Assembly: GCA_030649055.1 (NCBI GenBank)
Contig: JAUSGH010000001.1
Coordinates: forward strand, 10,907-74,906
Length of the DNA: 64,000 bases
Direction of reading: 5' to 3'
Source: a bacterium
GTDB lineage: Bacteria; Patescibacteriota; Minisyncoccia; UBA6257; JAUSGH01
This document shows positions 5,449-50,943 of this stretch, in pieces (position 1 is the first letter of the stretch; every line of letters begins with the position of its first letter). A program made the translations under genes and the position numbers. Under the pieces are notes generated by a model, which was given only the letters and a program-made list of their open reading frames with translations, was not told the origin of the DNA and did not search any database.

Positions 5449-5504
5449 ATGCGTTACAGTGTTTGACGGCAAACACTCGTACAATCCTTCGACAAGCTCA
5501 GGAT

Positions 5505-6015
5505 AAATAAAACAATAAAGCAATGAATCAAAAAAGCAACACAATGTTTACCGTCAAACAATGTTTACCGTCAAACATTGTTTCAGGCGAGGATGTTTGC
5601 CGGCAAACATTTGAAATGTATCAAAAGCCACTAAAAATACGGCAAGAGTACTGTTAATACGGCAAAACATGCTACTTTGCCGTATTTGTTTTATATTTTC
5701 GGTGAAATTGTTTCACGTCAAACACGCAGACAAGAAAACAATAAAGCAATAAATCAAAGAAGCGACAGATGTTTGCCGTCAAACAATTGTTTGACGGTAA
5801 ACAATTGTCTTGGGTGGAGGACATCGAAAAAACGTGATAAAGTGTTTGCCGTCAAACAATTGTTTTGGTAAAAATGACAAAAGTGTAGGTTTAATCAACC
5901 GATTGGATTATGGAGAAATTGCCTAGAAAGTAGGCTATAAAATGTTTAACAGATTGTTTAACGCCATGTAAATAAGTCAATCGGATAGGTTTAATCAACC
6001 GATTGGATTAAAAAA
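5505..6015. repeat. Cluster of iteron-like or operator-like direct and palindromic repeats in a 650-bp non-coding gap
   Basis: tgtttaccgtcaaaca is repeated in tandem three times at 5548-5598. Two roughly 70-bp imperfect direct repeats lie at 5507-5578 and 5737-5808. A perfect 22-bp palindrome ccgtcaaacaattgtttgacgg lies at 5777-5798. aggtttaatcaaccgattggatta occurs at both 5887 and 5988. Confidence 0.6.
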
Positions 6016-14997: not shown

Positions 14998-15012
14998 ATG
15001 AGTTTTGGTAAT

Positions 15013-15064
15013 GGTTCGACTGTGCTCACCAAATAAATATTTCCTGAGCTTGTCGAAGGAATAC
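15013..15064 (+). repeat. Hairpin-plus-RBS intergenic repeat, copy A
   Basis: ttcgac-tgtgctca-ccaaataaatatttcc-tgagc-ttgtcgaa-ggaatac. Shares the core ataaatatttcctgag...tcgaaggaatac with copies at 16169-16220 (reverse) and 18833-18884. Confidence 0.6.
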
Positions 15065-16168: not shown

Positions 16169-16220
16169 GTAGTCCTTCGACTTTGCTCAGGAACTATATA
16201 GTTGGTGAGCTTGTCGAACC
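16169..16220 (-). repeat. Hairpin-plus-RBS intergenic repeat, copy B (rpsA leader)
   Basis: The reverse complement reads ggttcgacaagctcaccaactatatagttcctgagcaaagtcgaaggactac and ends 9 nt before the rpsA ATG. The GAAGGA segment serves as the RBS. Confidence 0.6.
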
Positions 16221-16410
16221 ACTACAACCGTGAGGATGAAATTTACTTATAATGTCGCTTTTCGGCGCATCCCCGGCAGCCGATCCGCAATTACTCCAAA
16301 TGATAGCGGAGTCCGCTCAAAAATGCAAGCGCGTACTCTGTCATTGCGAAGGGCCGATAGCCATCGGCCCTGTGGCAATCTTACATTATAAAAACCCTAA
16401 AAATGGATTA

Positions 16411-18832: not shown

Positions 18833-18884
18833 GCTTCGACGGGCTCAGCACATAAATATTTCCTGAGTGGAATCGAAGGAATAC
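18833..18884 (+). repeat. Hairpin-plus-RBS intergenic repeat, copy C
   Basis: cttcgacgggctcagcacataaatatttcctgagtggaatcgaaggaatac. Its AAGGA lies 10 nt before the ATG at 18891. Confidence 0.6.
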
Positions 18885-23117: not shown

Positions 23118-23195
23118 TCCCCTTGTCATTCTGAAGCCGATAGCCATCGGCTGAAGAATCTCAGAGATCCTTCGCTCCGCTCAGGATGACACAGC

Positions 23196-24785: not shown

Positions 24786-24871
24786 GCCCTCGTGGTGCAA
24801 CTGGCAGACACGCAGCGCTTAGGACGCTGTCCCCTAAAGGGTTGGAGGTTCAAATCCTCCCGAGGGCACCA
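24786..24871 (+). tRNA. tRNA-Leu (anticodon TAG), class II with long variable arm, CCA encoded
   Basis: Acceptor gccctcg/cgagggc, anticodon stem cagcg/cgctg with loop cttagga, T-arm ggagg-ttcaaat-cctcc, 3' acca. Confidence 0.75.
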
Positions 24872-29635: not shown

Positions 29636-29722
29636 TGTCATTCCGGACCTGATCCGGAATCCAGCTCGCTAGGCTCTGGATTCCCGCTGGAGTTTATCCG
29701 CCTTTGGCGGGCGGGAATGACA
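29636..29722. mobile_element. MITE-like palindromic intergenic repeat, copy 1 (TGTCATTCC...GGAATGACA)
   Basis: 87 bp. Its reverse complement is about 90% identical to the copy at 37481-37566. Compound palindrome with internal hairpins. Lies directly after the ftsH stop. Confidence 0.6.
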
Positions 29723-29810
29723 CATAATCGATGGCTCGCTTGTTTTCCGCAACGCATTGCGTTACTTTTGATATGGTTCTTCTCGGGTGGTTTTTGTACG
29801 GAGGTAACCC

Positions 29811-30551
29811 GTGGGTCCGCATCGTCGGAGATTGCTTCGTCGCGCGGTGCGGCAGGCAAAGATTATCTCGTTTGATGCCGACGGAACACTGGTGGATTCG
29901 CGCATAACCGCGGTTCCGATCCACGCGGAGCTTGCGTCGAAGTATGGCCTCGCGACACCGGCGCCGTATGACGGGTGCTCCATTCCGGCTTGGCTTACAG
30001 CGCAAGGGCTAACGCCCCGCGCGCGCCGGCAGTACCTCAATGAGTGTCGGAAGATGGAGGAGGAGCGGCGTCCGCGGATATTCCCTGGCGTGAACGAACT
30101 CGTGCGGAAACTTAAGGACGCGGGGAAGTGCGTCGGAGTGATGACAAACCGTCCGGCGGAGGTACGGGGTTTCCGGATGTTCTGGAATTCCGGGCTCGAC
30201 CTGAACCTTTTTGATTTCTTCGCGACCTACGATCCGCATCCGCGGCGCGTTATGTGGATGAAGCGCTTGTGGCTCATGCGGAACATGCCCGATCATCACG
30301 TATCCGCTGCGTTCCCGAAGCCGGATAAGCGGGCATTTGATCCGATTTACCCGTGGATCGCGAAACTTGGTGCGAGTCCGGGTGAAGTCATCCATGTCGG
30401 CGATTCCATTCCGGATATCGTGGCGGCTCGCGAGAACTACTTCATGCCCATCGGCGTCCTCACGGGCGCGGTGCGGCACAAGAGCATCTTCTTTGAGCAC
30501 GGGGCGCAGTTTGTGCTCCCGTGTGTCACTGATGCGTTGAACGATCTCTAA
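29811..30551 (+). CDS. HAD-superfamily hydrolase (GC-rich)
   Basis: FDADGTLVDS (motif I) and GDSIPDI (motif IV). GTG start 6 nt after GGAGG. Confidence 0.65.
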   Translation: MGPHRRRLLRRAVRQAKIISFDADGTLVDSRITAVPIHAELASKYGLATPAPYDGCSIPAWLTAQGLTPRARRQYLNECRKMEEERRPRIFPGVNELVRKLKDAGKCVGVMTNRPAEVRGFRMFWNSGLDLNLFDFFATYDPHPRRVMWMKRLWLMRNMPDHHVSAAFPKPDKRAFDPIYPWIAKLGASPGEVIHVGDSIPDIVAARENYFMPIGVLTGAVRHKSIFFEHGAQFVLPCVTDALNDL

Positions 30552-30629
30552 TGGACCCGGTTTGCTTAGGCATCCGGGTCCGCTCTATTTGAAAATATGT
30601 CGGCGAAGCAGTATGATATGAATGCAAAT

Positions 30630-30771
30630 GCGCCCGTAGCTCAATGGTTAGAGCACCGAGCTTCCAATCGGCAGCGAGGATGGAGTAAAGTTGTGGCAAT
30701 GCGCCTGTAGCTCAATGGTTAGAGCACCGAGCTTCCAATCGGCAGCGAGGATGGAGTAAAGTTGTGGCGTT
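30630..30771 (+). pseudogene. Two tandem 71-bp units, each a tRNA 5' half plus a 37-nt spacer
   Basis: Unit 1 at 30630-30700 has acceptor gcgcccg, and unit 2 at 30701-30771 has acceptor gcgcctg. Both read ..gtagctcaatggttagagcaccgagctt + ccaatcggcagcgaggatggagtaaagttgtggc and lack an anticodon loop 3' side, T-arm and 3' acceptor. Confidence 0.7.
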
Positions 30772-30844
30772 GGGCGTGTAGCTCAATGGTTAGAGCACCG
30801 AGCTTATACCTCGGTGGTTCCTGGTTCGAGTCCAGGCACGCCCA
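30772..30844 (+). tRNA. tRNA-Ile (anticodon TAT)
   Basis: Acceptor gggcgtg/cacgccc, D-arm gctc-aatggtta-gagc, anticodon stem ccgag/ctcgg with loop cttatac, T-arm cctgg-ttcgagt-ccagg. No CCA encoded. Confidence 0.7.
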
Positions 30845-30890
30845 CAAATTTATTACATCCGAGCGAACCGATTGCATGCTAAAGGCATGG

Positions 30891-30927
30891 ACCTCGGTGG
30901 TTCCTGGTTCGAGTCCAGGCAGGCGCA
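30891..30927 (+). pseudogene. Orphan tRNA 3' half (anticodon-stem 3' strand, T-arm, acceptor caggcgc)
   Basis: acctcggtggttcctggttcgagtccaggcaggcgca. Its acceptor strand is complementary to the gcgcctg of 5'-half unit 2, implying a tRNA split by about 150 bp that contains the intact tRNA-Ile. A third 3'-end copy (tccaggcacgcccacaaatttta) lies at 31361-31385. Confidence 0.65.
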
Positions 30928-31639
30928 CAAATTTTATAATCAGCTTAATTGTTGATTATAAAATTTTGCGCCCGGACTCGAATGGGAAAGGGGTCGGGAA
31001 AACGGGAGTTTTCCCGTGGAGGAAGTGGACCCTATCGCAATTCTTGCTCTCGGCGCGTTGCGCTCCGCGCGCGTGAGCACAAGAAGCGACGACGAGGTTG
31101 TATGCTCTTGCATACGCCGAGGAGGAGCGACGCCGTGATTCGCGCGCGTGGTGCGCAACCCTTCGGGAAGCCGCATCTTGCCGCACATCGCAACGTTGCT
31201 CGTCGATTCATGTATCCCAGGGGATACACTTCACTCCTCGCGCCTTGCGCTGCGCCTAGCAATCTGCGGCTTCGCGCCAGAGATAAGAATTGCGATAGGG
31301 TCCGAACCGCTGGGTTTCAAAGCGCAAGCCCCGCAATGCGGGGCTGAGCAGTGAGATGTCCAGGCACGCCCACAAATTTTAAAACCAGAAGGAGGCGCGC
31401 TGTGGAAAACCCTCTTGCGCCTATGTGTCGCGATTTGTTATATATAAATGGTATGAAAAATGGTCGGCAACAGTTTACGTATGTCATGATTACGACGTCG
31501 CTTACGCGGAGGTCGCTTTCTCTTCATTCGTAACGCAGCCGATTCATACGAACGAAACAAGAAAGAGGCCTTCGCGAAACCGGAGGCCTTTTTCGTTTCG
31601 GGGCAGATTTTGTGGTTCTTTGACAATTCGGAGGTCGTC

Positions 31640-32068
31640 ATGCGTTTCACCGACGGGGATAAACATGCCGTTGCGGTGCTTCGGCAGTTTGCCCAGGACT
31701 TTTTGGAGCCGGGCGGGCTCCATGGGCCGATCTACTATCTTGGACAAGATACGCGGCTCTATGTGCTTGGCATCGTGAAAGATGCGAGCAGAGCGGGTTA
31801 CCCGGAGCGGCAGGTGCTCATATTGGGGAGCGATCCGTTGCCAAAGGAGAAATTTCCCGACATTCCCCAAGGGTGCGAGTTGCGGCTCTGCACGTTCGCG
31901 GTGTTGAAGCGCCCGCCGACTCCCGAAGAGCGCGAGGCGGACAAGCGGGAAGGGAGTGGGGGCGAGGACGGCTTCACCTACGAGCTCCTGGAGTTCAAGG
32001 GATGGAGCGACCACACGGTGTTCTTCGCCGGAACGACGATTCGTTCCCGATCCGCGGGGTTTCTTTGA
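31640..32068 (+). CDS. Hypothetical protein (142 aa, GC-rich)
   Basis: GGAGG RBS 5 nt before the ATG. The opposite-strand ORF 31544..32092 is Arg/Pro-rich and looks like a shadow ORF. Confidence 0.5.
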   Translation: MRFTDGDKHAVAVLRQFAQDFLEPGGLHGPIYYLGQDTRLYVLGIVKDASRAGYPERQVLILGSDPLPKEKFPDIPQGCELRLCTFAVLKRPPTPEEREADKREGSGGEDGFTYELLEFKGWSDHTVFFAGTTIRSRSAGFL

Positions 32069-32083
32069 CACGGTAGTCGCGTG

Positions 32084-32123
32084 ACCCAGCACTCGCCAAA
32101 GGCGAGCGCTGGGTTGCTTTTTT
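32084..32123 (+). terminator. Intrinsic terminator
   Basis: acccagcactcgcc-aaa-ggcgagcgctgggt followed by a T-run. Confidence 0.65.
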
Positions 32124-32207
32124 AGAAAAATGTTACGCTATGCAGTTGGCATGAGCTGTATGCGCGGTATAATTAGATATTAGACATTAGGAATTAGGAA
32201 TTGAACC

Positions 32208-33359
32208 ATGTCCCTCATTGAACAAAAAGATACGTTCGGTCCCGAGTTGGTGCTCCGTGTATATGATGCCGCAATCGGCATGGAAGGATTTTTAGTAATT
32301 GATAACACTGCTATCGGTCCCGGAAAGGGAGGCATCCGAATGACGCCGGATGTAACAGTAGAAGAAGTGTTTCGTCTTGCGCGGACAATGACGTGGAAAA
32401 ACGCGCTTGCTGACATTCCGTTCGGCGGCGCGAAGGGCGGGATTGTTTGGCCGGGTGGTTCCGACGAACTCAAAAAACAATTCATTCAAAGTTTTGCGCG
32501 CGCATTAAAGCCCTTTATGCCGAAGCGGTACATTGCGGGGCCGGACGTGAACACCGGCGAGCGCGAAATGCAGTGGTTTGTGGAGGCAACCGGCAACTGG
32601 CGCACGGCAACGGGGAAGCCGGCAAATTATTGTATGACGGTCTTCGGGAAGAAAGGAGAAAAGTGCGGCATTCCGCACGAGTTCGGCAGTACCGGATTCG
32701 GTGTGGTGCACGCGACGCGCGTGGCGGCGGATCTCGCGGGCTTGGATATCAAAAAAGCGAGCGTTGCGATTGAAGGATTCGGCAACGTGGGGAGTTTTGC
32801 GTTTCAGTACTTGAAAGAACTCGGCGCGAACGTGGTCGCGGTTTCCGATAAGGACGGCGCAATCTATAACCCAAAGGGCTTGGACGGCGCGAAACTCATG
32901 GCGCTCAAAAACGCGGGGAAGTCCGTCGCCGCCTACGGCAACGGCGAAAAAATTTCGCATGACGAAATCTTCGGATTGCCGGTGGATATTTTGATTCCCG
33001 CGGCGGTAACCGATGTCATCAACGACAAAAATAAAAACTCCGTCAAAGCGAAAATCATCGTGGAAGGCGCGAATATTCCAATGCAGGAACGCATTGAAGA
33101 AGAATTATTTAACAAAGGCGTCATGATTGTTCCGGATTTTGTGGCAAATGCGGGCGGGGTTATTTCTTCATACGCCGAGTACCGCGGCTATAACCCGAAG
33201 CGTATGTTTGAGTTGGTGGAACGAAAAATTGTGAAGTCCGCAAAAGTAGTACTTGGCAAGAGCTTGAAAGAGCACCGTCCGGCGCGTGCCATCGGCGTGG
33301 AGCTCGCAATGGCGAAAGTGGAGGCGGCGGGAAAGAAACGTAAAATGACGTTCCGGTAA
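32208..33359 (+). CDS. Glu/Leu/Phe/Val dehydrogenase family protein (glutamate dehydrogenase-like)
   Basis: GPGKGGIRM...IPFGGAKGG substrate-domain motifs and a GFGNVG Rossmann motif. Confidence 0.8.
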   Translation: MSLIEQKDTFGPELVLRVYDAAIGMEGFLVIDNTAIGPGKGGIRMTPDVTVEEVFRLARTMTWKNALADIPFGGAKGGIVWPGGSDELKKQFIQSFARALKPFMPKRYIAGPDVNTGEREMQWFVEATGNWRTATGKPANYCMTVFGKKGEKCGIPHEFGSTGFGVVHATRVAADLAGLDIKKASVAIEGFGNVGSFAFQYLKELGANVVAVSDKDGAIYNPKGLDGAKLMALKNAGKSVAAYGNGEKISHDEIFGLPVDILIPAAVTDVINDKNKNSVKAKIIVEGANIPMQERIEEELFNKGVMIVPDFVANAGGVISSYAEYRGYNPKRMFELVERKIVKSAKVVLGKSLKEHRPARAIGVELAMAKVEAAGKKRKMTFR

Positions 33360-33370
33360 TATTGGTCATC

Positions 33371-33437
33371 TGTCATTCCCGCGGAAGCGGGAATCTAGAA
33401 TTTGTGGACTAGATTCCGGATCGAGTCCGGAATGACA
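33371..33437. mobile_element. MITE-like palindromic intergenic repeat, copy 2 (short variant)
   Basis: tgtcattcccgcggaagcgggaatctagaatttgtggactagattccggatcgagtccggaatgaca. Same termini as the other copies. A related mini-palindrome gtcatccgaggatgac follows. Confidence 0.6.
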
Positions 33438-33485
33438 AGTCATCCGAGGATGACAAGCAGGGAGTGGTGCTATAATGAAAATACA

Positions 33486-36400
33486 ATGACGCTATATTTT
33501 GGTCCGTCAAAATTCTTGCTTCTTTGCTTTCTTGCTTCTTTGCTTTTATTTTCCTCTGCGCACGCCCAGACCGCCGGCACGTGGGACTCGCGCGCGGCGG
33601 TTTCGGCAAGCGTGAGTCAATCCGCGAGCCTTCTCGCATACCCGGGTAGCGGCAATCTTATCTATCAGCGCCGTGGCGACGATAATACGTTCAATAGTTA
33701 CAGCATCTCCGGAGATTCGTGGTCGGCGCTTACCTCCGACAACTGCGGCGCAGGCATCGGCAACGGCTCATTTTTAGTGCGCGGCGATAGCGGATTTTTG
33801 TACGCCGCGTGTCCCGGCGGGAACGACACAACGGACTTCGTGCGCTATGATATCTCTGGCGCCGATTGGGAGGAGCGCGCAACCTCGCCTTCTGGTTTTG
33901 GAAACGGTGCTGCGGCGGTATGGGACGGCAGCGACTATATATACGCGCTTCCTGGCGATGCAATGGCTGCTTTTTATCGCTACACCATTTCTACTAATGT
34001 GTGGGACTCCATGACTGCCTCGCCGACGGGTGTTACCGGTGGCGGCTCACTTGCATATCCCGGGAGCGGCAACTTTATTTACGCTTTCCGTGGTAGTGAC
34101 CTCACAACATTCTACCGCTACCACATCACCGAAAACGACTGGTCACCCATAACCGCCGCGCCAGATACCGTTGGTGGCGGCGGCTCGCTTGTTGCTATCG
34201 ACACGTCAACAATCTACGCCTTGCGCGGTGAAGGGGGCGGTACGCCACGAACGGATTTCTGGAGCTACGGCATCTCCGGCGACAGCTGGACGGTGCTCAC
34301 CGTCGCCCCAGCGGCTGTCGGCGCAGGTGGATCTCTTGCCTATGTGTCCAATTCATCGGGAACATTTCTCTATCAGCTCCGCGGTAATGCGACTACGGAT
34401 TTCAATCGGTATACCATTTCCGTCGTAGCGGCGAGTACCGGCAGTTCGGCCGGCAGCTTCCTTCTTGCCGCTCGGCAAGACGGGGGACTTTCGCTTGCTC
34501 GCGCAACGCCACCCGCCTCGCCGACAAATGTCGTGGTGACGCCATTGCCGTGCAACGGCACCTGCGGCGCGACAATCGCGCTTTCATACGCCGCGCTTTC
34601 CGTGCATCGTGGGCGCCCGATGACGTTCGCGTTTATCGATGAATCCGGGAAAACATTGGGAAGCATCTACGAGCCGTACGCGAACGGAAAGTCATACACT
34701 ATGGAGCTCAAAAATCTTCCGCAAAACAGCCCATTAAACGGACGGCTTTGCGCGCAGTTCAGTCCTGGTGAGGGTTGCGCGAATGTCCAAAGCTGGACGC
34801 TCTGGTCGCTTGACGCCGCAAAAGTGAAATTAAGCGCCGCGCCTGAGGGTGACCGGTATCGTGTGCGCGTGGCAGTCCCTCCGTTTATGAATGAGGGGGT
34901 GGATGCGAGCGGCGTGCGTGTTGCGATAGAGGAGAACGGCGCGGTAAAACCCATGAGCATGAAAAACGGCCGCGTGCCGGCCGCGACGCTTGCGCAAGTC
35001 GTTACAACAATCGGTACGCACGAGACAATAACGCAGGTTGCGCCGTTCATAAACACCGCGATTACCCCCCCAGCGCCTTCCGGTGGACTTTCCGTGCCCC
35101 GTACTACGCTTGATGTTATTTCTATACTTCCCGTCATACAGGCGGCGCCGAAAACAGGGAGTGGCGGAATCTCCGTGCCGTCAAAAGCAGCTCCGTCGCC
35201 GGTGCCGGTGAAGGAGAGTTTGCCCGGAACATTACTCCAAAGATCCGGCGAGTGGGCAACCATGCTTGCGCCTGGCGAATATCGCATGGTCTTGACTCCC
35301 ATAAACGGCAAAGGCGTGCTCGGTGTTCCGCTTACACTGCCGCTGTCACTCAAACCCTTTGGCGAAGCGATGACACTTACGGCCGGCATGGAGGCGGAGG
35401 ATGGCACGCTCCGGACAATAATCGATGCGACCTCGAATCGTCTTGGGAATACCGGCATAGACATCATTGCGGAGCGTAAAGGAAGCGCCTTCGCGTTTCG
35501 CTCGACGGAGAAATCCGTTGAGGTACGCGTGTCACTTGTCGCGGCGCTCGCGAAAGCTGAAGAACATTTTGATTTTGTTTTTGCGTGCGCGCCCGGGGGA
35601 GGTAACTGCGCGGTAAAAAGCGTTGCCGCGCAAAAAGGGAATATTATCAACCGAGCGGCCATTGCGAAAAACAGCAACGGATTTGTGACGGTGAAAACGG
35701 AAGATGCGATTGCGACGGTGCGCGTAACCGAAGGGATAACGCAGATAAGCATTTCCGCGACCGGGGAGTTGAAGCGGCTGAGGAGCGAAGAATACGTCGC
35801 GTTAAACGCGCTTCGCGGCGGCACCGCGACATTTTCCGTTTCAGCGGCCGATGTACTTGGAAATACCGCGGCGATCCGCGACGTGCCGGTGAACATTCCG
35901 GGGAGCGAGGCGGCGATTGCCGCGTTTACCGTTACGTCCGCGGGCGATGAGGGTGACGTGGAAGCGCGTGGAGTTATTGATTATTCGAATTTCACCGCGC
36001 GCGGATTGCTACTTAATCTTTCGTTCGCCGAGGAAGGATTGAGCGTCGAGGGTACAGTGGCAAGTATTCCGCAGTTGGTGCAGTTGCTCGTCGCGCGCGA
36101 TGACGGGACGGGCGTACAATTCGCGCTTTCGTGCGAAGCCTCGCCACAGGCGGGCGAAGCCTCGCCGCAGGTAGGCGAAAAAACTTGCGGTATTGTCGCG
36201 ATCGCGGCGCCTCAAGGAACGCCGCTTGAAGTAGTGCCTGAAGAAAATCCGGACGGCACAATGCGCGCGGAGGCGGGCGGCATCACGCTGACGTATGATA
36301 CGCAAAACGCATTGCCGATGCTTGTCGGGGCGGATGCGGCGGGATTTTCCAATATTGAAATCCGCGCGCGCTACCCGTCATTCGGTCTCGGTAATTTCAC

Positions 36401-36689
36401 GGGAGTTATGATCGCGAATGAAGCGCGCGCCAGCGCGGCATTTTTTGGAGTCGGAAAATATTTAAATCTTTTTCCGGAGGTGATTGAAAAGGTTATTTTG
36501 GACCTTGCTCCGCTTATCATTAACTACATCGCGCCGCAAAACGCCGCTCCGATTATAGAAAGTGTAGAGGGATCGCGCATGGTGTCCCAGTCGCGTCCGG
36601 TACAGATTTTGCGGCAAGCATCCGAGGTTGGCGCGCCGGTGAGTCCGTTGCTCAACGCCATCCGTAATCTTTTCGGCGGCGAGCAGTAG
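33486..36689 (+). CDS. Large secreted protein with an N-terminal six-blade Kelch-like repeat region and a long Ala/Gly/Thr/Val-rich C-terminal region
   Basis: Signal peptide (LLLCFLASLLLFSSAHA). Six repeats of about 50 aa with Y[AQ][LF]RG...TDF.RY.IS...W, consistent with a beta-propeller. Start trimmed to the ATG at 33486 downstream of the MITE-like copy. Confidence 0.6.
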   Translation: MTLYFGPSKFLLLCFLASLLLFSSAHAQTAGTWDSRAAVSASVSQSASLLAYPGSGNLIYQRRGDDNTFNSYSISGDSWSALTSDNCGAGIGNGSFLVRGDSGFLYAACPGGNDTTDFVRYDISGADWEERATSPSGFGNGAAAVWDGSDYIYALPGDAMAAFYRYTISTNVWDSMTASPTGVTGGGSLAYPGSGNFIYAFRGSDLTTFYRYHITENDWSPITAAPDTVGGGGSLVAIDTSTIYALRGEGGGTPRTDFWSYGISGDSWTVLTVAPAAVGAGGSLAYVSNSSGTFLYQLRGNATTDFNRYTISVVAASTGSSAGSFLLAARQDGGLSLARATPPASPTNVVVTPLPCNGTCGATIALSYAALSVHRGRPMTFAFIDESGKTLGSIYEPYANGKSYTMELKNLPQNSPLNGRLCAQFSPGEGCANVQSWTLWSLDAAKVKLSAAPEGDRYRVRVAVPPFMNEGVDASGVRVAIEENGAVKPMSMKNGRVPAATLAQVVTTIGTHETITQVAPFINTAITPPAPSGGLSVPRTTLDVISILPVIQAAPKTGSGGISVPSKAAPSPVPVKESLPGTLLQRSGEWATMLAPGEYRMVLTPINGKGVLGVPLTLPLSLKPFGEAMTLTAGMEAEDGTLRTIIDATSNRLGNTGIDIIAERKGSAFAFRSTEKSVEVRVSLVAALAKAEEHFDFVFACAPGGGNCAVKSVAAQKGNIINRAAIAKNSNGFVTVKTEDAIATVRVTEGITQISISATGELKRLRSEEYVALNALRGGTATFSVSAADVLGNTAAIRDVPVNIPGSEAAIAAFTVTSAGDEGDVEARGVIDYSNFTARGLLLNLSFAEEGLSVEGTVASIPQLVQLLVARDDGTGVQFALSCEASPQAGEASPQVGEKTCGIVAIAAPQGTPLEVVPEENPDGTMRAEAGGITLTYDTQNALPMLVGADAAGFSNIEIRARYPSFGLGNFTGVMIANEARASAAFFGVGKYLNLFPEVIEKVILDLAPLIINYIAPQNAAPIIESVEGSRMVSQSRPVQILRQASEVGAPVSPLLNAIRNLFGGEQ

Positions 36690-36745
36690 CGATAGCGGCG
36701 AAAGGTCAGCTTGTATTCTGATGCGAAATAGATATTATAGAGGCT

Positions 36746-37471
36746 ATGAAACGCCATCGTTTTTTTATTGATCCGCGCGCCATTCAAGGACGCTTTGCGT
36801 ATATTGAGGACGCAAGTGTTTGCGGGCAGATAAGCAAAGTATTGCGGCTCCGCGCGGGGGATGAAGTGATCCTGCTCGACGGGCTTGGTTTTGAATACGC
36901 CGCGCGCCTCGTTGAGGTGAACGCGCGGAAAGCGCAGGCAGAAATTTTGCATCGGCAGATGAATAAAAATGAAGCGGAGCTCAAAATTACTTTATATCAG
37001 GCGTTGGTCAAGAAGGATAAATTTGAATGGGTGCTCCAAAAATGCACCGAAGTCGGTGTTACGCATTTTGTGGCCGTGCAAGCCGCGCGCAGTGAAAAAA
37101 CGGGCTTGAACGAGGAGCGCGCGAAAAAAGTGCTGAAAGAAGCCGCGGAACAGTCCGAGCGCGCGATCATCCCAGAACTTTCGGAAATAAAAACATTTGA
37201 GAGCGCGCTGCGCAAAGCTGTAACGCCGGATACGCCGACGATGATTCTTGACGCAAGCGGTGAATCGATCGTAAGCTCAAAAATGGCGCGCACGCGGTAC
37301 ACGCTGAACGTTTTTGTCGGCCCCGAAGGGGGATGGGATGAGGCAGAGCTTGAGGCGGTTCGAGGACTGATGCGCGAGGGGTATCCGTTGGAAATTGTGA
37401 ATCTTGGTCCACGCGTGCTTCGCGCGGAAACCGCGGGACTTGTGGCGGCGGGGATAGTGCTCAACCGATAA
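36746..37471 (+). CDS. rsmE: 16S rRNA (uracil1498-N3)-methyltransferase RsmE
   Basis: RsmE-type N-terminal PUA-like domain and C-terminal SPOUT motifs (VFVGPEGGW, LGPRVLRAETA). Confidence 0.8.
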   Translation: MKRHRFFIDPRAIQGRFAYIEDASVCGQISKVLRLRAGDEVILLDGLGFEYAARLVEVNARKAQAEILHRQMNKNEAELKITLYQALVKKDKFEWVLQKCTEVGVTHFVAVQAARSEKTGLNEERAKKVLKEAAEQSERAIIPELSEIKTFESALRKAVTPDTPTMILDASGESIVSSKMARTRYTLNVFVGPEGGWDEAELEAVRGLMREGYPLEIVNLGPRVLRAETAGLVAAGIVLNR

Positions 37472-37480
37472 AACGTTAAG

Positions 37481-37566
37481 TGTCATTCCCGCCCGCCGAA
37501 GGCGGATAAACTCCAGCGGGAATCCAGAGTTGGCGTGCTGGATTCCGGATCAAGTCCGGAATGACA
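37481..37566. mobile_element. MITE-like palindromic intergenic repeat, copy 3
   Basis: tgtcattcccgcccgccgaaggcggataaactccagcgggaatccagagttggcgtgctggattccggatcaagtccggaatgaca. Lies directly after the rsmE stop. Confidence 0.6.
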
Positions 37567-46657: not shown

Positions 46658-47552
46658 AATGATTACACTGAAATGTTGACCTTAAAGCATAACCCCTGCG
46701 GCTCCTAGTCCTCCATAAAGAGGACAATTTCCAGAGCCGCGCACAGCGGCTTTTGTCGTTGTAAGGGGACCGGTGCTGACTGAAACGAACGGACATTGAT
46801 AAACAGGATCTGACAGAAAATTCTTTTTTGTCGGGTGCTCATAAGTAAATCAATGCAAATGAAAACGCAATTTCAAGAGTATTATCGAAAGCATTCAATG
46901 CTTCGATGATCGGTTTTACTGCTCAATATCTGCATGATGGCGGAGTATTGAGTACGCCTCGTTAAGTCGCCTCAGGCGACCGCGAGGTTGCACGCGTTGA
47001 ATTCAGAGCGTGTATAAGGGCGTATGGTGGATGCCTAGACACAAAATGGCGATGAAGGACGCAGCATAACTGCGATAAGCTTCGGGGAGGTGTGTAGCAA
47101 CCTTTGATCCGGAGATTTCCGAATGGGGAAACCCTGCGCGGTAAACCCGCGTAACGCATGCGATTAAACGCGCATGTGAGCAGACCCGCTGAAGTGAAAC
47201 ATCTCAGTAAGCGGAGGAATAAAAATAGATTAGATTCCCCAAGTAGCGGCGAGCGAAAAGGGAACAGCCTAAACTTTAGTGTGTGCAGCAATGTATACGC
47301 TGGAGGGTTGCAAGGGTAAGACATTTTTGCGTATCGCAAAGCTCTCGTTAAACAGGGCTGTGCGATTCGCGGAAGATTGGTTACAAATTGCTTCGTTAGC
47401 TGAAGCTTCTGGAAAGAAGCGCCAAAGTGAGTGATAGCCTCGTAAGCGAAAACAAAGCAACCAATTCGTTTTATTTCTTAAGTACCTCGAGACCACAACA
47501 TCTCGAGGGAATCCGCCAGTACTATCTGGTAAGGCTAAATACATTTTGTGAT

Positions 47553-47589
<37 letters not shown>

Positions 47590-49458
47590 CAGCCCGGCGA
47601 GGGCGCTGAAATAGTACCTGAAACCATATGTCTACAAGGACTAGAAGTCCAACCACTGAGCAATCAGTGGCGGACAACTAGGTGCCTATTGAAGAATGAG
47701 CCAACGACTTTACGTTTACTGCTTGTCTAAGTCGCTTCATGCGACGGAGGCATAGGGAAACCGAGTGTTAATAGCGCGTTCTCTTATTTATGACCGAGTA
47801 GCTGGTATGCTTCCAGCGTTCGGTCATAGATGAGAAGGCAGTAAGTGTAAGACCCGAAGCCAAGGCGAGCTTGCCCTGACCAGGATGAACCCGAGCGAAA
47901 GCGAGGGGGAGGTCCGAACCAGTTGATTGTGCAAAATCTTTGGATGAGTTGGGGTAAGAAGTGAAAAGCTAATCGAGCTTGGTAATAGCTGGTTCTCTCC
48001 GAAATAGTTTTAGGACTAGCGTTCCGCAAAAACCGTATGGGGGTAGAGCACTGGTTGATTCGTATTGGGGGAAACCTCGGCGCATCAGTCAAACTCCGAA
48101 TACCATACGGGACGCGGGATAGTCAGACTGTGGGGGCAAAGCTCCATGGTCGCGAGGGGAATAGCCCAGACCGTCGTCTAAGGTCCCTAAATTCTTGCTA
48201 AGTGTAAAAGGTAGTCATGCCCCAGAGACAGATAGGAGGTTGGCTTAGAGGTAGCCATCCTTTAAAGAGTGTGTAACAACTCACTATTCGATGGGTCGTG
48301 GCGCCAAAAATGTACCGGGGCTAAGCAAGATACCGACGACACGGGTGTCCATGACTTCGGTCGTGGACGCGGTAGGAGAGCATTCTGATTGCTGTGAAGG
48401 TTCATCCGTGAGGAGGACTGGAGCGTTCAGGAGTGAGAATGTTGGCATGAGTAACCATCAAATCCGATGAGAAATCGGATCCCCGAAAATCCAAGGTTTC
48501 CGTGGCAATGGCAATCAACCACGGGTTAGGCGATCCTAAGGCAATGGCGAAAACCGTAGCCGATGGGTAGCCGGTTAATATTCCGGCCCGCGCTTATTTG
48601 TGCGATGGGGTGACGGAGGAAAAAAGGTTGAGCGTCTCAATGGTTTGACGTCGCTGATGATAAGGAATGTGTTCTTGGCAAATCCGGAGCACTGTGTTTA
48701 ATCGCGAATTCCGCGCGTCGGCGTAAGGCCAAGTTTTACTTGGCTAATTCAACTGAAGAGCCTTCCAAGAAAAACCTCTAAGTTTAGGATAAGCGCATCG
48801 TACCGTAAACCGACACAGGTGGGTGAGGCGAGACGCCTCAGGGGAACGAGTGAGTCTTGGTCAAGGAACTAGGCAAAAAAGCGGCCGTACCTTCGGTATA
48901 AGGCCTGCCCGTCACGCCGCAAGGTGTGCATGGGCTGCAACAAAAGTACATTTGGCGACTGTTTATCAAAAACACAGCTTCCTGCTAACTCGTAAGAGGA
49001 TGTATAGGAGGTGACACTTGACCGATGCGAGAAGGTTAACGGTGGGTGTGTATTCGAAAGCAATTTTGGATATGCTCACTGCCCGAAGCCCTCGTCAATG
49101 TCAGCGGTAACTATAACCGTTCTAAGGTAGCGCAATTCCTTTCCGGGTAAGTTCCGGAGCGCATGAATAGTGTAACGATCGAATGACTGTCTCGACCAAG
49201 AGCTCGGTGAAATTGCGATTCCCGTGAAGACGCGGGATACCTGTAACGGGACGAAAAGACCCCGGGAGCTTTACTGTAGTTTGATATTGGCTTTAACGTT
49301 TTTCTGCGTAGCGTAGTGGCGAGGGTATGAAACCTGGTTTTCGGATCAGGTGGACCCGACAATGAAACAGCCATCTGGAAAATGTTAAAATCTAACCTTT
49401 ACGGCAAAAACGTATTGGGACAGTGTCTGATGGGCAGTTTTAATGGGGCGTTATCCTC

Positions 49459-49793
49459 AACAAAACGATTGACATCCGTTCAATCGAGGGGGTTAACGTA
49501 ATAAAAAATTCAGCTATATGCTGGGACATCCGTGCATCTTCAAGTACTCGGGCGCTTCGCGCTCAGTGAAAATCTTGAAGTGGCATCCGCCAGGTGGCGG
49601 ATCGACGGACAATCAGCAGGCAACCTCCGACGGACATCGGAGAGAGTCCTCAACGACTATACGCTGAACATCGTGATGTCACTCGCGATGAAGATATAGT
49701 CTGACCTCTGTGGCGACACAGAGAGTTGTGGTAGAAATGCCGCGCCGATCACCGGCAACTAAATTTTAGAGTTGCTGGCGATGTGTAACAAAT
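49459..49793 (+). other. ORF-less insertion of about 335 nt in 23S next to the P-loop region (candidate group I intron)
   Basis: Flanking sequence reads ...ggcgttatcctc | insertion | ctaaaaagtaacggaggag. The flanks together restore the conserved GGTCTCCTCCTAAAGAGTAACGGAGGAG. Boundaries +/- 2 nt. Confidence 0.55.
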
Positions 49794-50127
49794 GCCTAAA
49801 AAGTAACGGAGGAGTTTATTAAGGTTGGCTTAGCGCGAATGGAAACCGCGCTGGACGTGTAAACGCAAAAGCCAGCTTGACGGCAAGACCTACAAGTCGC
49901 GCCGGTGCGAAAGCAGAAGTTAGTGACCCGATGATCCGTCATAGAATGGTCAGAGACATCGGCTAAAAGTTACCCCGGGGATAACAGGCTAGTCTGGTCC
50001 GAGAGTTCCTATCGACGACCAGGCTCGGCACCTCGATGTCGGCTCGCCCTAGCGCGGAGGTGGAGAAGCTTCCAAGCGTATGGCTGTTCGCCATTTAAAA
50101 GGGCACGTGAGCTGGGTTCAAACCGTC

Positions 50128-50401
50128 AACGAAAAAGAACCTAGAGAAGACATCAACAAACGGCGGCGCTTTGCCGTAAGGCAAAGCTGAGAAGTTGACT
50201 CATATCGGTGAAGTCCTACAAAATCTTTAACCTGGGTTTTGAGGATAACCCCGAGGGAAGGTCCGATGAACGTCGGACCCCCGTAGAGACTTGATCGTAA
50301 GGGATCGGAATCCGGTTTTATAATCGGGTTAATACGTCAACCCTCCGATGAATATCGGAGTGATGGTATAGTCCAAACAATTAGTAATAATTGAGTATTG
50401 C
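50128..50401 (+). other. ORF-less insertion of about 274 nt in 23S at the I-CreI-type homing site (candidate group I intron)
   Basis: Flanks aaccgtc | insertion | gtgagacaggttagtc restore the conserved AACGTCGTGAGACAGTTCGG. Boundaries +/- 2 nt. Confidence 0.55.
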
Positions 50402-50826
50402 GTGAGACAGGTTAGTCTCTACCTGTTACAGGCGTGTGATGCTTGAGGGCAGTCGACCCTAGTACGAGAGGACCGGGTTGAACGAACCTCTGGTCTACCA
50501 GCTTTAGTACCAACTGAATCGCTGGGTAGCTAAGTTCGGAAGGGATAAGCGCTGAAAGCATATAAGCGCGAAGCCTAGCCCAAGATAAGGCATCTTTCCG
50601 CAAGGAAGCAGTCCGTAGAAGATTACTACGTTGATAGGTCGCAGGTGTAAGATCAGTAATGATTTCAGCCGAGCGATACTAATAGACTGTCACACGCTCT
50701 GAATTGAGCGCATGAAAGTAGCGTTCTCTGTAGAAATATAGAGGGCGCCAGTAAAACCGATCATCAAAGCATTGAACCCCCGCCTTTCGGCGGGGGGAAA
50801 GGGTTAGAAAAAACAACCTTTTTGTT

Positions 50827-50943
50827 TGCTGGTGTTTTGTTTCGATGTGTCCCACCTCTTCCCATTCCGAACAGAGTCGTGAAAGCATCGTGAGCCGATG
50901 ATACTAGCTGCTTCGGCGGCCGGGAAAGTAGGATATGCCAGCA
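50827..50943 (+). rRNA. rrf: 5S ribosomal RNA
   Basis: tgctggtg...cccacctcttcccattccgaacagag...ccgatgatact...gggaaagtaggatatgccagca. Confidence 0.85.

Follow-up and report, generated by a model that had tools for sequence, protein, structure and literature searches.

Hairpin pairs behind genes of a Patescibacteria genome as probable gene-less relatives of the NTS/SRM repeats

Introduction

The window analysed here, a stretch of 64,000 nucleotides from contig JAUSGH010000001.1 (GenBank assembly GCA_030649055.1, positions 10,907 to 74,906 of the forward strand, Patescibacteriota), raises the question of what the compound palindromes are that stand behind several of its genes, and of how they came to be there. 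An initial annotation, made from the sequence alone, had described three such intergenic elements as resembling miniature inverted-repeat transposable elements (MITEs), and had proposed that they act as terminators or mRNA stabilisers, in the manner of the repetitive extragenic palindromic (REP) sequences and their mosaic elements (BIMEs), or that they are non-autonomous transposons. The analysis reported here makes it probable that they are inverted pairs of hairpins of the NTS/SRM type, and gene-less miniatures of a unit in which the gene ssn lies between a hairpin and its inverse. The family as such is a cross-phylum one already described as NTS/SRM (dRS3 in Neisseria), which the initial annotation had not recognised.

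NTS is a Neisseria 28-mer, CGTCATTCCCGCGMAVGCGGGAATCYRG, which encloses the older dRS3 repeat, while SRM is a degenerate motif class found across phyla (Chenal et al., Nat Commun 2025, PMC11893778). The Ssn proteins, small GIY-YIG proteins (cd10448), bind and cut these hairpins solely as single-stranded DNA (ssDNA) and on one strand, the cut lying, in Neisseria and Wolbachia, 5' of the hairpin at a distance of a few nucleotides; cutting by SsnA depends critically on the bases ahead of the palindrome (GTC), and binding on the C behind it (PMC11893778). The repeats have also been reported to flank ssn genes frequently, in an insertion-sequence-like manner, the multiplication of the repeats being left open (PMC11893778). 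A literature search returned no follow-up work on Ssn beyond this 2025 paper.

Build of the elements and likeness to NTS/SRM hairpins

The three copies and their relatives in the window are the following.

29636-29722, minus strand: copy 1, long form, reversed with respect to copies 2 and 3, 9 nt past the ftsH stop codon; hairpins at 29637-29664 (plus strand, GTCATTCCGGACCTGATCCGGAATCCAG) and, the long one, at 29676-29721 (minus strand)
33371-33437, plus strand: copy 2, short form, 11 nt past the stop codon of a Glu/Leu/Phe/Val (ELFV) dehydrogenase gene; left hairpin at 33371-33398 (plus strand), right hairpin at 33409-33436 (minus strand), GTCATTCCGGACTCGATCCGGAATCTAG
37481-37566, plus strand: copy 3, long form, 9 nt past the rsmE stop codon; long hairpin at 37482-37527 (plus strand) and second hairpin at 37538-37565 (minus strand)
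23122-23190, plus strand: divergent element built in the same way, 4 nt past the stop of a solute-binding-protein gene; hairpins at 23125-23163 (plus strand, GTCATTCT..AGAATC with a nested stem) and 23163-23190 (minus strand, GTCATCCTGAGCGGAGCGAAGGATC)
33440-33455, no strand: mini-palindrome GTCATCCGAGGATGAC, abutting copy 2, with both element termini and nearly no interior
16340-16383, plus strand: solitary related hairpin GTCATTGC..GCAATC, with the nested stem GGGCCGATAGCCATCGGCCC

The three intergenic copies, the divergent element and the mini-palindrome are thus real, as the initial annotation had claimed, and so is the placement after stop codons, four elements starting 4-11 nt downstream of one.

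Each element consists of two hairpins in inverted orientation, one per strand, which follow the scheme GTC-palindrome-C-YAG and whose GTCA ends face outward, so that each DNA strand has one forward hairpin at its 5' edge. The palindromes start with ATTCC, and the C behind them is usually followed by YAG. In all six hairpins of the three copies the palindrome is immediately preceded by GTC and immediately followed by C, the stems include a perfect 8 bp, and the hairpin-forming palindrome falls within the 20-50 nt by which NTS and SRM are defined. The left hairpin has the stem ATTCCCGC/GCGGGAAT and the right hairpin the stem ATTCCGGA/TCCGGAAT, with the loop TCRRG; between them, the YAG and CTR tails pair to give a short middle stem (CYAG/CTRG), and the terminal inverted repeats TGTCATTCC and GGAATGACA close all three copies.

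The hairpin closest to the published repeats is the left one of copy 2 (33371-33398), which agrees with the NTS 28-mer at 26 of 28 positions; its two mismatches, at the first base and at one loop base, leave it outside the limit of at most one mismatch used in PMC11893778. The dRS3 pattern ATTCCCN8GGGAAT (ATTCCCNNNNNNNNGGGAAT) has one exact match in the same hairpin, at 33375-33394, where 0.02 would be expected, and the other five hairpins do not fit it. Like NTS and SRM, the window hairpins are oriented, with GTCA on the 5' side, an ATTCC-led palindrome and then C and YRG; they are intergenic, the repeats occur across phyla, and the same hairpin types flank ssn genes. Unlike them, they stand in tight inverted pairs about 10 nt apart with no gene in between, two of them have a nested insert of 19 nt that the published motif does not cover, the host is a metagenome-assembled genome (MAG) of Patescibacteria, a group not named in the main text of PMC11893778, and no ssn gene was seen in the window.

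Hairpins around ssn genes and across phyla

The same hairpins are widespread. When one genome per species was scanned for GATTCCGGAN5TCCGGAATGAC, at least 120 stretches were found, about one match being expected by chance (our own estimate from the 20 fixed bases). The matches listed come from many phyla, among them Patescibacteria, Chloroflexota, Bacteroidota, Ignavibacteriota, Thermodesulfobacteriota and Nitrospirota, with Rickettsiales, sphingomonads, Campylobacterota and spirochaetes in addition. Among these same matches, the loop, which the pattern leaves unconstrained, is TCAAG in 85 of 122 instances, and an inverted partner hairpin lies within 130 nt upstream in 61 of 122, versus 12 of 122 in the control direction. 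The stems of the partners differ by paired changes (ATCCTGAA, ATTCCCGC, ACCCCGGA, ATGCTGAA and others). A copy from Thermodesulfobacteriota (L015) shares 88% identity with copy 3 of the window over 69 nt, the nested insert included.

What such pairs may enclose is seen in contig L112, where GTCATTCTGGCTTGGCCAGAATC and its inverse form an exact bracket around a 96-aa GIY-YIG gene between recA and recX. Three bracketed GIY-YIG proteins were aligned, and a scan of metagenomes with this alignment gave 80 loci, 69 of which have enough flanking sequence; in 34 of these 69 ssn loci a forward hairpin stands upstream and a reverse hairpin downstream, each within 120 nt and with GTCA outward, the opposite order being found in about two. 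The encoded proteins match the Pfam GIY-YIG family, and no NCBIfam model was found for them.

All three hairpin types of the window were found as brackets of ssn, in identical or near-identical form. In L159 and L146 the brackets are GTCATTCCCGCGGAAGCGGGAATCCAG ... CTGGATTCC...GGAATGAC, of which GTCATTCCCGCGGAAGCGGGAATCCAG equals the copy 2 hairpin up to ATC; in L177 the bracket has the ATTCCGGA stem, and in L182 it is a long variant with GGGATAAACTTCAGC. Since the same hairpin types bracket ssn elsewhere, the window elements look like gene-less miniatures: by sequence comparison they would share these termini, about 10 nt standing in place of about 320 bp of gene. The conjecture of non-autonomous elements in the initial annotation, and its comparison with REP and BIME, fit this result. 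Gene-bearing units that end in the same outward-facing hairpins do exist.

Two observations concern the ssn genes themselves. On manual reading, the ssn frame of L159 (1501-1830) seems to enter the right hairpin and to stop at a TGA within GGAATGAC; if so, the terminal repeat appears to encode the last residues of Ssn there, with earlier stops at other loci. When the Ssn protein of L159 was used as a query, 7784 of 8000 scored candidates had E<=1e-10, mostly on contigs shorter than 3 kb, which would be expected of multi-copy units that break assemblies, and the named matches were only Desulfobacterales.

Conservation, folding and the 3' ends of transcripts

Within the window, the element ends are enriched. 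The terminus GTCATTCC occurs seven times versus 2.0 expected (at least seven in none of 100 shuffles), six of the seven being element ends; the right-hand 28-nt pattern GTCATTCCGGAN5TCCGGAATCYAG occurs three times versus 0 expected; and a structural scan (GTC, a perfect stem of at least 6, C) gave eight sites versus 1.8 expected, six of them the hairpins of the three copies.

Copies 1 (reverse complement) and 3, put at about 90% identity in the initial annotation, are identical at 81 of 87 positions (93%), and all six differences lie in predicted loops (P ~0.001). Copy 2, correctly described there as a short variant, is the one from which the 19-nt nested insert of the first hairpin is missing, and its middle stem shows a compensatory change, CTAG/CTAG versus CCAG/CTGG in the others. 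Stems are conserved and loops variable; the stems are under selection.

Whether as RNA or as DNA, all copies are predicted to fold into three hairpins enclosed by a terminal stem of 5 bp (TGTCA/TGACA); the z-scores lie between -3.1 and -5.2 (about -4.4 for ssDNA) and the RNA energies between -28 and -40 kcal/mol. The cloverleaf-like shape of this fold was considered as a possible RNA gene and dropped, because neither Rfam, at the gathering score, nor ARAGORN gave a match at the elements.

Folds of this strength, together with the position of four elements 4-11 nt past stops, between genes of the same direction and upstream of the next promoter, are what would be expected of RNA structures of the 3' untranslated region maintained by host selection, which would terminate transcripts or shield them against 3' exonucleases in the manner of the REP sequences of E. 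coli. We regard it as unlikely that this is the primary reason for the elements. The positional bias is weak, four cases being only suggestive (combined P ~0.007), and the orientation varies, copy 1 being reversed. No T-run stands behind any element, so they are not intrinsic terminators, and the terminator role put forward in the initial annotation is not supported. A terminator scan listed no element on the transcribed (plus) strand; the only listed stem touching one is that of the mini-palindrome (33439-33454), which lies on the opposite strand and ends in a tail of four T, and terminator-like sites are no commoner in the window than in shuffles. Moreover, orthologous genes of relatives either lack an element or are followed by an ordinary terminator or a different element, and the same sequences flank a nuclease gene across phyla.

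The elements also disturb gene calling. Of the two false N-terminal extensions that the initial annotation attributed to them, the one at 33402 stands, since that TTG start lies inside copy 2 and the extension is thus an artefact; the open reading frame (ORF) from 24767 crosses a tRNA-Leu gene (24786-24871), with no element there.

Gain and loss in related genomes

Syntenic contigs of relatives whose rsmE is 77-85% identical were compared at the three sites. Downstream of ftsH, L123 and L124 have an 82-nt spacer with no element, and L129 has a different repeat. Downstream of the dehydrogenase gene, L129 has an empty 26-nt spacer and L131 an ordinary terminator, and L123 and L124 carry a different hairpin pair, of the GTCATTGC type seen at 16340 in the window. 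Downstream of rsmE, L123/L126 and L132 are empty, with 5-8 nt from the stop to the same TTGACG -35 box that, in the window, begins 10 nt after the end of copy 3 and belongs to the promoter upstream of tRNA-Gln. That relatives are empty or otherwise filled at all three sites shows a lineage-specific gain, the simplest reading being recent insertion in the lineage of the window, in agreement with the repeat family proposed in the initial annotation. Logan contig L001 breaks within copy 3, as expected of a multi-copy repeat in a short-read assembly. At the place where the window carries copy 3, downstream of rsmE, contigs L129, L130 and L131 have TGCGGAT(G)-rich arrays.

Insertion polymorphism of this kind is also what classical MITEs would show, or REP-like elements moved by an enzyme encoded elsewhere, of the DDE transposase or of the Y1 HUH type (for the latter, IS200/IS605 TnpA or RAYT). 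The termini TGTCA...TGACA begin with TG and end with CA as in many DDE elements, and the combination of hairpin and flank is akin to the ends of IS200/IS605 and to REPs. As in MITEs, the elements are short and gene-less, have inverted termini in common with a gene-bearing unit and are present or absent among relatives; as in the REP/BIME-RAYT and IS200/IS605 systems, short hairpins with a conserved 5' flank are recognised as ssDNA, they often form inverted pairs after genes and the gene of the enzyme is bracketed by the repeats, a comparison that was drawn in the Ssn paper (PMC11893778). Even so, we consider movement by such a transposase very unlikely. The target-site duplications envisaged in the initial annotation, which MITEs would have, were not found, and none of the copies in the window has a transposase beside it. 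As the conserved flank they have GTCA, GTAG of the REPs being absent. Where a gene lies within such termini, as in the 34 of 69 loci above, it is no IS200/IS605 TnpA, which had been suggested as the cognate enzyme, and no HUH tyrosine enzyme, but a single-domain GIY-YIG nuclease of about 97 aa (Ssn; PMC11893778), so that the gene-bearing unit lacks a known transposase.

The junctions of copy 2 show a further peculiarity, GTCATC being found also immediately to its left (33365-33370). The GTCATC repeat around this copy was considered as a target-site duplication and rejected, since it may merely belong to the adjoining mini-palindrome. Partial duplications of the GTCATTCC terminus adjoin full hairpins (GTCATCTGTCATTCC; GTCATTCCCGCCCCTTTGTCATTCCCGC) in the window at 33365-33375, in L146 at about 210-250 and in L075, and they may be traces of a copying process.

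These partial duplications would likewise fit a passive role, in which the repeats serve as landing or recombination sites for other mobile elements, or as homology patches for imported DNA, with no Ssn acting here. In Neisseria, dRS3 is a target for the integration of filamentous phages, used by the phage recombinase, and NIME arrays associate with variable genes; in the present case, the site behind the dehydrogenase gene holds different elements in different lineages. We think it improbable that this is the explanation, taking into account that no integrated element or recombinase adjoins the three copies, and that a landing-site role would explain the use of the repeats and leave their origin and conserved paired build unexplained.

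The NIME units deserve a closer comparison. They consist of dRS3-RS-dRS3, with RS spacers that form families of 19-214 bp, often in long arrays near surface-protein genes, and have been described as specific to Neisseria (PMC1797815). The window shares with them the exact dRS3 at 33375-33394, two inverted hairpins around a spacer and the intergenic location. It differs in that its spacers measure about 10-12 nt, its units are single and form no arrays, they stand beside housekeeping genes, and dRS3 fits only one of the six hairpins. Isolated dRS3-RS-dRS3 units of Neisseria and BIMEs of E. coli resemble the window form in design.

Proposed mechanism and points against it

If the elements are, as is probable, NTS/SRM-type hairpin pairs, the following course of events can be envisaged. 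An Ssn protein, encoded elsewhere in this Patescibacteria genome or formerly present in it, would recognise each strand of an element when that strand becomes single-stranded, during replication or DNA uptake, and would nick at the element boundaries, once per strand. Copies might then spread through nick-triggered repair or copying, with no classical transposase. Insertions would be tolerated between a stop codon and the next promoter, any effect on mRNA 3' ends being secondary. More broadly, and much more tentatively, the hairpin-ssn-hairpin unit could be a new kind of mobile element, driven by an ssDNA nuclease of about 97 aa of the GIY-YIG type, with the window pairs as non-autonomous derivatives copied by nick repair and exchanged across more than 20 phyla, including the reduced genomes of Patescibacteria.

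Several points weigh against the identification or against this course of events. The published SRM expression has no exact match in the window, missing by one loop base; with one substitution allowed, it catches four of the six hairpins and is unspecific (14 observed versus 8.5 random). The two long hairpins have 23-nt loops, beyond the published definition of SRM. The paired hairpins of the window are of different subtypes, whereas pairs flanking ssn are usually alike. A search by regular expression and tblastn, covering the 64-kb window and about 60 kb of related contigs, gave no GIY-YIG ORF. There is no consistent direct repeat at four junctions, the empty sites of relatives being too diverged to set those junctions. 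Finally, a GIY-YIG nuclease forms no covalent intermediate, so that re-joining would need host functions; we know of no transposition chemistry for an enzyme of this type, and to our knowledge there is no published evidence that Ssn moves NTS/SRM repeats, nor do the present data contain any.

Significance

A set of unexplained intergenic palindromes, which were a source of spurious ORF extensions, is here tied to a family described in 2025, and the NTS/SRM family would thereby be extended to a genome of the candidate phyla radiation, in a compact, paired and gene-less form. This has a bearing on how the repeats multiply, since ssn is typically bracketed by outward-facing hairpins and gene-less pairs with the same termini have been gained in a lineage-specific manner, and it touches the open question of whether the Ssn units represent mobile elements of a new kind. 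For annotation, masking the elements would remove false starts such as that at 33402.

Gene context and other features of the window

According to domain searches, the genes flanking the elements are ftsH, those for a HAD hydrolase, the ELFV dehydrogenase and a large unknown protein, and rsmE. The closest named relatives of the RsmE protein are from Harrisonbacteria and Patescibacteria.

In the region 47004-50943, the 23S rRNA gene measures 3700 nt versus 2925 nt in the model and is interrupted by a group I intron (49461-49723); a 5S gene comes next, and no 16S gene is nearby. A 23S gene with a group I intron and no adjacent 16S is typical of candidate-phyla-radiation genomes.

Pieces of tRNA genes are found at 30627-31379. 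Two tandem 71-nt copies, 99% identical, contain a tRNA 5' half with a different anticodon loop; behind them come a complete tRNA-Ile(TAT) at 30772-30845 and an additional 3' half (30891-30934), which has an acceptor strand matching that of the second 5' half, and a partial 3' end appears again near 31358-31379. These pieces could be a split tRNA or attachment-site duplications.

An AT-rich intergenic stretch of 600 nt contains, at 5458-5862, six copies of the 22-nt palindrome GATGTTTGCCGGCAAACATTTG and other repeats, which could form an array of binding sites. Another family of paired hairpins, CCTGAGCTTGTCGAAGG / GGTTCGAC..GCTCACC, is present at 15008-15064, 16169-16225, 18836-18880 and 5485-5508; its ends are GTAAT/GTAGT versus GTCAT in the elements described above, related Logan contigs break inside it, and its motif occurs in other phyla too (L010, L046).

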